DNA of 4,921 nucleotides from a virus (IMGVR_UViG_3300029471_000044:1-4921), one strand, 5' to 3'. Counted from the first letter of the stretch, positions 3,343-4,921 are shown. Program-made: numbers and translations. Notes: a model not told the origin generated them from the letters alone.

Positions 3343-3813
3343 CTAATAAAATACCCAATTTTCTGTTTCTTGGTTGTGTCCAAAGTTATATTCAATATCT
3401 GGTGTTGATGTATCAATATTCTTCATCCCATCAACAAGAGTTGATACAACAGCCAAATCTTGTTTGATTCTCATCAAATGGTATTTCTTCCGGCGCAATA
3501 AACTTTCAATGGCAAGTTTCTTCGTCGGGAACGCAAAAGATCTTTCTGCATTTTTTGCTACTTTCTTAATTGCATATCTATTTCTCCTTTGTTTCCATTC
3601 CTGTAACCACTGATTTGGTGCTGGTTTAAAATTAACAATCCAATGCGCAGGAACCAACCATGCATAATGCTCTGTCTGATGAAAAGCTATATATTGAAGT
3701 GCGAATATTTTTATCCCATCTTCTTCAACTGTCGCCTGGAATCTCCAGAAAACAGGCATTCCCTCATGTTCAGTTTCTGATTCAGGAAAAGGTACGCTCC
3801 ATGATTTTGTCAT
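3343..3813 (-). CDS. Hypothetical protein (156 aa), function unknown
   Basis: Long minus-strand ORF; ATG 3813-3811 lies 3 nt after the stop (TAA 3817-3819) of the upstream gene, suggesting translational coupling. Stop TAA 3343-3345. No motif I can recognise. Confidence 0.75.
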   Translation of the reverse strand: MTKSWSVPFPESETEHEGMPVFWRFQATVEEDGIKIFALQYIAFHQTEHYAWLVPAHWIVNFKPAPNQWLQEWKQRRNRYAIKKVAKNAERSFAFPTKKLAIESLLRRKKYHLMRIKQDLAVVSTLVDGMKNIDTSTPDIEYNFGHNQETENWVFY

Positions 3814-3816
3814 ATA

Positions 3817-4098
3817 TTACTCATCTCCAAGGGCTTTGCTGATTGCTGACTGTGCTTTCGATACTTCATCAGGATAATGGTCATTCCAGTTTTGCTTGTA
3901 TGCCTTGTTTAGCATCGCTTGCAGTGCTTCAAGCAAATCAGGAGCTGCTGCTATCAGTAGCGCATCCTCCCTTTCATTTCTTGTTGCTGCTTCAATGTAT
4001 GTGTCACCAATCGTCACACCATGGAACGTAGTCATCATCTCGTTGACGTTTCTAACCGTGTACTTCCATTTACCAGGCGTACCCTTAAACTCTTTCAT
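3817..4098 (-). CDS. Hypothetical protein (93 aa) with conserved-looking LLIAAAPDLLEAL segment
   Basis: ATG 4098-4096 preceded by AGAGGTGG 3-5 nt upstream; the ORF track begins 2 codons earlier at GTG 4104. Stop TAA 3817-3819. Confidence 0.7.
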   Translation of the reverse strand: MKEFKGTPGKWKYTVRNVNEMMTTFHGVTIGDTYIEAATRNEREDALLIAAAPDLLEALQAMLNKAYKQNWNDHYPDEVSKAQSAISKALGDE

Positions 4099-4137
4099 AT
4101 CCACCTCTGTTGTTTATGCCAAAAATAAAGGCCACCA

Positions 4138-4338
4138 TCAGGCAGCCTTGTTGTTCTGTTTACCAAGTTCTCTGGCAATCATTGCCGTCGTTCGTATTGC
4201 CCATTTATCGACATATTTCCCATCTTCCATTACAGGAAACATTTCTTCAGGCTTAACCATGCATTCCGATTGCAGCTTGCATCCATTGCATCGCTTGAAT
4301 TGTCCACACCATTGATTTTTATCAATAGTCGTAGTCAT
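4138..4338 (-). CDS. Hypothetical small Cys-rich protein (66 aa), possible zinc-ribbon-like C-x5-C-x2-C-x5-C
   Basis: ATG 4338-4336; weak SD (AGGA, 8-nt spacing); Cys at residues 11, 17, 20, 26; stop TGA 4138-4140. Confidence 0.6.
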   Translation of the reverse strand: MTTTIDKNQWCGQFKRCNGCKLQSECMVKPEEMFPVMEDGKYVDKWAIRTTAMIARELGKQNNKAA

Positions 4339-4408
4339 ACGGATAGTCCTGGTATTGTTCCATCACATCCTGAGGATGCTCTTCGAACTCTTCAAATTCT
4401 TCTTCCAT
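4322..4408 (-). CDS. Candidate micro-ORF, 28 aa, extremely acidic (MEEEFEEFEEHPQDVMEQYQDYPYDYDY)
   Basis: ATG 4408-4406 preceded by SD GAGGTG with 4-nt spacing (complement of 4413-4418); stop TGA 4322-4324, overlapping the start of the 66-aa gene by 17 nt in another frame. Below the ORF-track size cutoff, so coding status is unproven. Confidence 0.3.
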   Translation of the reverse strand: MEEEFEEFEEHPQDVMEQYQDYPYDYDY

Positions 4409-4462
4409 ATATCACCTCAAATAAGTTGTTTGCTGCGAAAGTAAATACGCTTAAGTTACCTG

Positions 4463-4600
4463 TTATTTATTCCACCAAGTTCCGTATCTATCTATCCAGT
4501 TACACCAATCATCGACACTCCATTTTGTTGTGTCGCATTTTGGCAACTGGCATGAATATCTACCTTCTTTGTAAAGTCGGCGTTTGACTTTCTTGAGCAT
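4463..4600 (-). CDS. Candidate small protein (45 aa), Cys-containing
   Basis: ATG 4600-4598 preceded by SD GAGGTG with 4-nt spacing (complement of 4605-4610); product MLKKVKRRLYKEGRYSCQLPKCDTTKWSVDDWCNWIDRYGTWWNK; stop TAA 4463-4465. First ORF downstream of the terminator at 4717-4741. Confidence 0.4.
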   Translation of the reverse strand: MLKKVKRRLYKEGRYSCQLPKCDTTKWSVDDWCNWIDRYGTWWNK

Positions 4601-4716
4601 GGCTCACCTCAATCGTAATAAGCTGGAATTGATTTTCCGCGTTGCTTCTGGCGGCCTGAGCAGGTCACACCCATTTCACTGCGTGGCTTGCTGTAATAAA
4701 TTCGGTTAGTTCAGAC

Positions 4717-4741
4717 AATAAAAAACCCACCGAAGCGGGCT
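4717..4741 (-). terminator. Rho-independent terminator on the minus strand, overlapping the stop codon of the upstream partial ORF
   Basis: Minus-strand RNA: AG-CCCGC-UUCG-GUGGG-UU then UUUUAUU; 5-bp core stem (4726-4730/4735-4739, one G-U pair) with a UUCG tetraloop, extendable to 7 bp, followed by a U-tract (complement of AATAAAAAA 4717-4725). Confidence 0.6.
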
Positions 4742-4919
4742 ATGACCATTTTTTATTTGGATTTCGTTGGTGAGCGTGATTAACAACTCTGTGCATTACA
4801 TCCTCATATTTTTCATCTTCAATTTTTTCGACATCGCGAGGAAATGGTGTTGCTAATGCTTTGTCAACTTTATCCATTGGGTCTTCATTAATCTTATATT
4901 CAGGACCGTCATCTATAGC
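4740..4919 (-). CDS. Hypothetical acidic protein, C-terminal 59 codons only (5' end beyond the right edge)
   Basis: Frame open from the window edge to TAG 4740-4742 (...AIDDGPEYKINEDPMDKVDKALATPFPRDVEKIEDEKYEDVMHRVVNHAHQRNPNKKWS); same strand as the rest of the operon, with a terminator straight after its stop. Not in the ORF track because no start codon is inside the window. Confidence 0.45.
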   Translation of the reverse strand, partial: AIDDGPEYKINEDPMDKVDKALATPFPRDVEKIEDEKYEDVMHRVVNHAHQRNPNKKWS

Positions 4920-4921
4920 AT

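Follow-up and report, generated by a model that had tools for sequence, protein, structure and literature searches.

Gene content of the locus

The window, by which we mean the whole 4,921-nucleotide stretch analysed here (IMGVR_UViG_3300029471_000044), includes an accessory part of the early-left (pL) operon of a lambdoid prophage. On the minus strand, this segment encodes three small proteins of 45, 28 and 66 amino acids (Table 1). Comparison with known phage proteins makes it almost certain that these are, respectively, a member of the Sf6 gp36/T4 gp55.4 family, lambda orf28 and lambda ral. None of the three ORFs is new; all are catalogued genes in their usual operon place.

An earlier note on this DNA had described a cluster of three ORFs behind a terminator, and its reading of the positions and signals proved accurate. 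The ORFs lie on the minus strand where it had put them, and the motif GAGGTG occurs exactly 4 nt 5' of three start codons, those of the 45-aa and 28-aa ORFs and of the gene for a Rad52-type SSAP (match at 2331-2343). The arrangement GAGGTG-N4-ATG is thus found three times against 0.06 expected, and none of 200 shuffles reached three. The 28-aa and 66-aa ORFs overlap by 17 nt (4322-4338), and the 28-aa peptide, MEEEFEEFEEHPQDVMEQYQDYPYDYDY, is strongly acidic, with eight Glu, four Asp and neither Lys nor Arg. All three ORFs are genuine genes, and both small ORFs are kept as proteins across relatives.

The terminator that the note had seen before the cluster was located as a hairpin and T-run at 4741-4724, with a 7-pair stem and a TTCG loop followed by TTTTATTGTC. 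A second hairpin, at 4149-4128 and absent from the note, has a 9-pair stem followed by TATTTTTGGC, so that the three small ORFs are bracketed by two intrinsic terminators.

The partial ORF upstream of the first hairpin ends in ...HQRNPNKKWS* at its C terminus, and the mEpX1 gene that it matches carries the annotation Nun-like transcription termination factor. The match is thus to a Nun-like gene, whereas SfI, Sf6 and lambda have an N-type antiterminator; similarity between SfI and the window stops at about position 4695. Located 3' of ral are accessory genes, cIII- and kil-like ORFs, and genes for the Rad52-type SSAP, an SSB, an HNH protein and a 3'-5' exonuclease. Two of the accessory ORFs on the minus strand, both without a Pfam family, encode a 95-aa protein (3817-4104; phrog_1273) and a 156-aa protein (3343-3813; phrog_1636, E 7e-112). 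Runs of N (masked sequence) at 1113-1131 and 2444-2462 break up the window, the latter within a small ORF that precedes the SSAP gene.

Both small ORFs are annotated in the lambda, SfI and Sf6 records. In one E. coli prophage with 99% identity, the PGAP annotation includes Ral and neither of the small ORFs, in agreement with the comment in the earlier note that two ORFs had been missed by an ORF track.

Table 1. Features of the three-gene segment and its borders, in the order of transcription
Feature	Position	Strand	Basis or remark
3' end of upstream gene, Nun-like	4740-4921	-	Runs past the window edge; context only
Terminator-like hairpin and T-run, at the tL1 position	4724-4741	-	Upstream boundary of the cluster
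Shine-Dalgarno site GAGGTG of the 45-aa gene	4605-4610	-	4 nt 5' of the ATG
45-aa gene, DUF5484 (Sf6 gp36/SfI gp44/T4 gp55.4)	4463-4600	-	PF17583, phrog_1871
orf28 leader, about 27 nt, conserved	4409-4435	-	GAGGTG at 4413-4418; upstream edge of the orf28-ral cassette
orf28 (lambda lambdap47), 28 aa, acidic and aromatic-rich	4322-4408	-	phrog_16060, lambda layout, pN/pS
Putative Shine-Dalgarno site AGGA of ral	4347-4350	-	-12 to -9 from the ral ATG; within orf28 codons Q20-D21
ral, restriction-alleviation protein, 66 aa, CX5CX2CX5C	4138-4338	-	PF11058, phrog_1055, lambda identity
Second terminator-like hairpin	4128-4149	-	Downstream cassette boundary; overlaps the stop codon of ral

The 45-aa protein belongs to a family common to T4-like and lambdoid phages

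The 45-aa protein is the Sf6 'gene 36 protein' and SfI gp44, and it matches Pfam PF17583 (DUF5484; 46.7 bits, cut-off 27) and phrog_1871 (E 1.6e-22). A translated search found relatives in 1052 phage records, among which T4-like phages predominate; T4 55.4 is 53.8% identical (E 4e-7). Across 56 representatives of DUF5484, obtained by clustering at 50%, P20 and G40 are invariant, and at least 90% of sequences keep K6, Y15, W27, W32, I36, D37 and W42. The window protein, T4 gp55.4 and Sf6 gp36 have K6, Y15, P20, W27, W32, I36-D37, G40 and W42 in common, and all are products of stand-alone small early genes of 43-45 aa. The AlphaFold2 model has a pLDDT of 94.3 and predicts a small alpha/beta protein.

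None of the three cysteines of the protein is conserved across DUF5484, and a zinc-finger protein can thereby be dismissed. A search for the domain inside larger proteins gave only spurious repetitive matches or short extensions. The pN/pS of the 45-aa gene is 0.76, a value that is uninformative because the lambdoid copies are near-identical and the T4 copies saturated, so its status as a gene rests on conservation across the family. In the literature search we found no paper on DUF5484, and the sole mention was of T4 gp55.4 among early-to-middle transcripts. The predicted fold of this family is a confident one.

This gene is a mosaic module separate from its neighbors in the window: it is present in mEpX1 without orf28 or ral, and it is missing from most ral loci. 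In ST64T-type phages (L111 (ST64T), L135 and L137) the orf28 ATG directly follows the leader of the 45-aa gene (...AATCAATTCCGGCTTATTACGATTGAG...). Compared with window positions 4600-4660, this junction looks like a deletion of the 45-aa gene by recombination between the near-identical Shine-Dalgarno regions of that gene and orf28 (TTGAGGTGA).

The 66-aa protein is lambda Ral

The 66-aa protein is 100% identical to lambda Ral. It matches Pfam PF11058 (Ral) over residues 1-66 of 66 (162.5 bits, cut-off 25, E 1.6e-48) and phrog_1055 ('restriction alleviation ral'; E 1.7e-49). With Type IA enzymes, lambda Ral both relieves restriction and promotes modification (PMC12707154; PMC10695390), accelerating their de novo methylation (PMC12707154), and from the sequence identity we infer that the window protein would alleviate Type IA restriction as lambda Ral does. 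Ral expressed alone sensitised hosts in one screen (PMC12373910). In another study, Ral cloned alone had little to no effect (PMC9410887); the main text of that paper leaves unstated whether the construct included orf28.

Among 34 homologues, C11 is invariant and C17, C20 and C26 occur in at least 90%, forming the motif WCX5CX2CX5C. Since all four cysteines are kept even in homologues that are only 53-64% identical (L113 and L114), it is plausible that Ral binds zinc. We found no solved structure of Ral, and an AlphaFold2 model of the protein alone is of low confidence (mean pLDDT 66.5; 50-62 in the cysteine region).

The putative Shine-Dalgarno site of ral, AGGA, lies within orf28. Among 39 haplotypes, the codon for Q20, which overlaps this site, is CAG in 36, and the codon for Q18 is CAA in 36. 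The comparison indicates that the synonymous site of Q20 is held fixed, which is consistent with AGGA being a functional Shine-Dalgarno site for ral.

Ral sequences 100% identical to that of lambda also appear on short contigs assigned to unrelated bacteria (Nocardioides, Pseudoxanthomonas, Paenibacillus and others; genome_contigs loci L004-L019, L022, L024, L025 and L027), with a coverage of about 1-2x where the contig names state it. These most likely represent contamination with lambda DNA and not real prophages.

orf28 is a conserved small gene

The 28-aa peptide is lambda orf28 (lambdap47, NP_040623.1) and matches phrog_16060 over residues 1-28 of 28 (E 7.1e-19). The exact peptide is recorded as AAA96576.1 and others and is present on 182 contigs. 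The lambda genome has the identical 17-nt overlap with ral (lambda 34271-34287). No match to the peptide was found in Pfam, NCBIfam or PDB sequences. Our literature search returned neither a study of orf28 function nor expression data for it, and the annotation is still hypothetical protein.

Of 187 ral loci, from a collection gathered in phage records, IMG/VR and reference genomes, 177 carry an ORF with an ATG or GTG start at exactly positions -70 to +17 relative to the ral ATG. This geometry holds down to about 64% Ral identity and includes P22, BTP1, ST64T and Providencia/Proteus-type prophages (Ral 64-80% identical to that of lambda). Where the leader has changed, a Shine-Dalgarno-like sequence (GAGGTG, AAGGTG, AGGGG or AGGAG) still precedes orf28. 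The consensus of the peptide is M-E-[ED]-[ED]-[FI]-E-E-F-[ED]-E-H-P-x-D-[VD]-M-x-Q-Y-Q-D-Y-P-Y-x-Y-D-Y.

Both orf28 and ral, whose reading frames the earlier note had proposed to compare across related prophages, are under purifying selection. Calculated over codons 2-23 only, which lie outside the overlap, and independently of any pre-selection of intact ORFs, pN/pS is 0.18 in the orf28 frame; the value for ral is 0.20. The five other frames over orf28 range from 0.36 to 3.5, with 1.8-2.4 in the other two sense frames. The lowest of these values, 0.36, belongs to the antisense frame that shares its wobble positions with orf28, and stops close that frame in 29 of 32 sequences. Invariant residues of orf28 are specified by alternative codons: P12 by all four, and E7, F8, H11, D14, Y19 and Y22 by both. 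On the strength of the fixed geometry, the low pN/pS in frame and the wobble variation at invariant residues, we judge orf28 to be protein-coding, and very probably a translated gene under purifying selection.

orf28 and ral travel as one cassette

Where Ral is at least 95% identical to that of the window, homology with the window breaks 14-45 nt past the ral stop codon and, in most loci, 8-27 nt 5' of the orf28 ATG. These breakpoints flank both genes, which indicates that the leader, orf28, ral and the terminator hairpin move as a single mosaic cassette. A translated search with orf28 against phage genomes gave no match, probably because of low-complexity masking of the acidic query, and a degenerate DNA pattern specific to orf28 was used in its place. 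This pattern identified 120 loci, and all 120 have ral or a ral remnant immediately downstream.

The exceptions to the pairing fall on both sides. Four loci have a broken orf28 and an intact ral (L131, L144, L147 and L194, the last with a stop at codon 4), and ral homologues without orf28 occur in two phages outside the lambdoid/P22 group, GZMU_E2010 and W5_chr3. The absence of orf28 from these two phages, together with the screen in which Ral acted alone (PMC12373910), argues that Ral is not strictly dependent on orf28. At three loci that lack orf28 (L153 and L155 of IMG/VR, and L114, which is Salmonella phage W5_chr3), the ral ATG overlaps the stop codon of another upstream ORF in the sequence ATGA. 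Repeatedly, then, ral is coupled to an ORF before it, which suggests that it may habitually be coupled in translation to whichever ORF precedes it.

Conversely, about ten loci have an internal deletion in ral (MTTTIDKNQWCGQ, then out of frame) with orf28 still open. They form a ral-deleted lineage in IMG/VR (L206, L208, L209, L213, L256, L260, L297, L299, L306 and L314). Synonymous and non-synonymous substitutions in orf28 number 2 and 5 at these loci and 47 and 21 where ral is intact, a comparison that involves few and non-independent ral-deleted loci. The open orf28 in this lineage fits poorly with a pure dependence of orf28 on ral.

Rare predicted orf28-Ral fusions were also seen (Logan/ENA short contigs; L316). 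Three of these (P0058, P0062 and P0155) arise through a 1-nt deletion (GG to G) in the overlap and one (P0068) through a 13-nt deletion in the overlap. We set all four aside as evidence, given that each rests on one short contig and could reflect an error of sequencing.

Translation of the pair and possible roles of the peptide

The earlier note had likened the overlapping layout to coupled regulator/partner pairs. Tight linkage between the two genes is borne out by the fixed -70/+17 geometry, the joint inheritance and the purifying selection; the mode in which the peptide acts, in trans or in cis, remains a proposal. The explanation that we find best combines the three-gene segment, the orf28-ral cassette, a translational link between the two genes and a functional peptide in the Ral pathway, and as a whole we regard it as moderately probable.

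Transcription of the pL operon would depend on N/Nun-type antitermination, and expression of the cluster would need antitermination from pL. Within the segment, the DUF5484 gene is an independent mosaic module. The strong Shine-Dalgarno site would drive translation of orf28, whose stop codon lies 14 nt inside ral, so ribosomes translating orf28 would cross the weaker AGGA site and the start codon of ral and terminate just past them. Because they would end just beyond the ral start, synthesis of Ral would be linked to translation of orf28, and we think it fairly likely that orf28 translation is coupled to ral initiation. Ral would then let EcoKI and other Type IA enzymes methylate DNA de novo at a higher rate, and would thereby relieve restriction.

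Selection on the peptide sequence itself implies that the orf28 peptide is a functional product and not a mere spacer. We prefer a role in the anti-restriction pathway, in which the peptide would be a partner or modulator of Ral or of its target, since the pair is never separated and since the aromatic residues and the His-Pro are as invariant as the acidic residues. That the peptide acts with Ral or on its target is a tentative proposal, to which we give somewhat less than even weight. A more specific version, in which orf28 is the missing second component of the Ral system, binding Ral or the HsdM/HsdS core of Type IA enzymes and needed for full alleviation or enhancement of modification, is speculative and on present evidence unlikely. 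If true, it would help to explain why the mechanism of Ral has stayed obscure and why Ral cloned alone had little or no effect in one study (PMC9410887).

Alternatively, orf28 could be a leader peptide that acts only in cis. Its acidic N terminus would pause or destabilise ribosomes and so set the level of ral translation, with no role in trans; Mg2+ and the ABC-F factors EttA and YbiT would influence what fraction of ribosomes reaches the overlap. Residues 2-10 include seven that are Asp or Glu, and positions 2-4, 6, 7, 9 and 10 are acidic in nearly all variants. Pausing that depends on EttA arises when acidic residues occur among the first 30 of a nascent chain; aceA, located downstream of aceB, is controlled in this way, as is the leader peptide MgtL (PMC11282234). 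EttA and YbiT relieve the destabilisation of ribosomes by poly-acidic sequences (PMC11162784). Such a leader would fit the fixed overlap of orf28 with ral and the repeated coupling of ral, by ATGA, to other upstream ORFs. However, F8, H11, P12, M16, Y19, Y22 and the C-terminal YPYxYDY are just as invariant, which a throttle based on charge alone leaves unexplained; orf28 also stays open in the ral-deleted lineage, and ral has a conserved AGGA of its own. We consider a purely cis-acting leader, the main rival of a role in the Ral pathway, rather unlikely.

The peptide might instead be, as the earlier note proposed, an independent inhibitor, a mimic of DNA or of an acidic tail directed against a host enzyme unrelated to Ral, and adjacent to ral because both are early accessory genes. 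A net charge of -12 over 28 residues and the conserved aromatic residues would suit such a function, as would the retention of orf28 where ral is deleted, and in lambda the accessory part of the pL operon houses the inhibitors of host functions gam, kil and cIII. Against this, orf28 was not found away from ral or its remnant at any of the 120 pattern loci, mosaic breakpoints never split the two genes, and the peptide is without similarity to any Pfam family or solved structure, so that we regard this explanation as improbable.

It is highly improbable that orf28 is untranslated and conserved as a non-coding 5' leader of ral (an RNA structure or standby site) or through a gene on the opposite strand: an opposite-strand frame is open in 36 of 36 variants and the leader RNA of the window folds somewhat better than shuffled sequences (z = -2.25), but substitutions show a three-nucleotide periodicity and cluster at the wobble positions of orf28, pN/pS is 0.18 in the orf28 frame against 1.34 in the open antisense frame, the consensus RNA structure is a negligible -2.6 kcal/mol with its helix in 31 of 73 sequences, and the start codon and Shine-Dalgarno site persist through turnover of the leader. 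An RNA switch pairing the starts of orf28 and ral, as drawn in the MFE fold of the window, was rejected on the same consensus figures.

Significance and comparison with known systems

The observation of the earlier note is real, and the genes that it concerns are already known and annotated; for a genome scan this is an ordinary finding of known genes in their usual place. What is added here is the quantitative constraint on orf28. Few phages have been studied as thoroughly as lambda, yet this gene is still a 'hypothetical protein', and automatic annotation can drop it, as PGAP did in the one prophage checked. With orf28 constrained as strongly as ral and never separated from it, a neglected annotation becomes a simple, testable question about how anti-restriction of the Ral type is produced or functions.

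Several other small or acidic proteins invite comparison with orf28. The T4 peptide Stp, of 26 residues, acts on EcoprrI, an enzyme of Type IC. Like orf28, it is a very small phage peptide, and its target is a Type I restriction-modification enzyme; it differs in not being acidic and in its genetic context, and we claim no sequence relationship between the two. Ocr and ArdA are folded proteins of more than 100 residues, compared with 28 in orf28. They resemble orf28 in being highly acidic and encoded by mobile elements, and they defeat Type I restriction; homology of the 28-aa peptide to these proteins was not detected in Pfam, NCBIfam and PDB sequence searches. Ocr and ArdA are described as DNA mimics (PMC9410887), and both have been used side by side with Ral as Type I inhibitors (PMC9410887; PMC12373910).

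MgtL and AceB, which are EttA-dependent or prone to destabilisation, resemble orf28 in that acidic residues run together within the first ten codons and that a following gene is tied, or in the case of orf28 is probably tied, to their translation. The conserved aromatic residues and His-Pro of orf28 are absent from the MgtL/AceB paradigm.

The closest counterparts of the orf28-ral pair are those of lambda and P22. Upstream of the pair, the window has the 45-aa DUF5484 gene and the Nun-like gene where lambda has sieB and N, and the downstream genes differ too. Between these unlike flanks, the Ral and orf28 sequences of lambda are identical to those of the window, with the same 17-nt overlap and the same place downstream of the N/Nun-type gene, and the orf28-ral pair is present in P22, ST64T and BTP1 as it is in the window.
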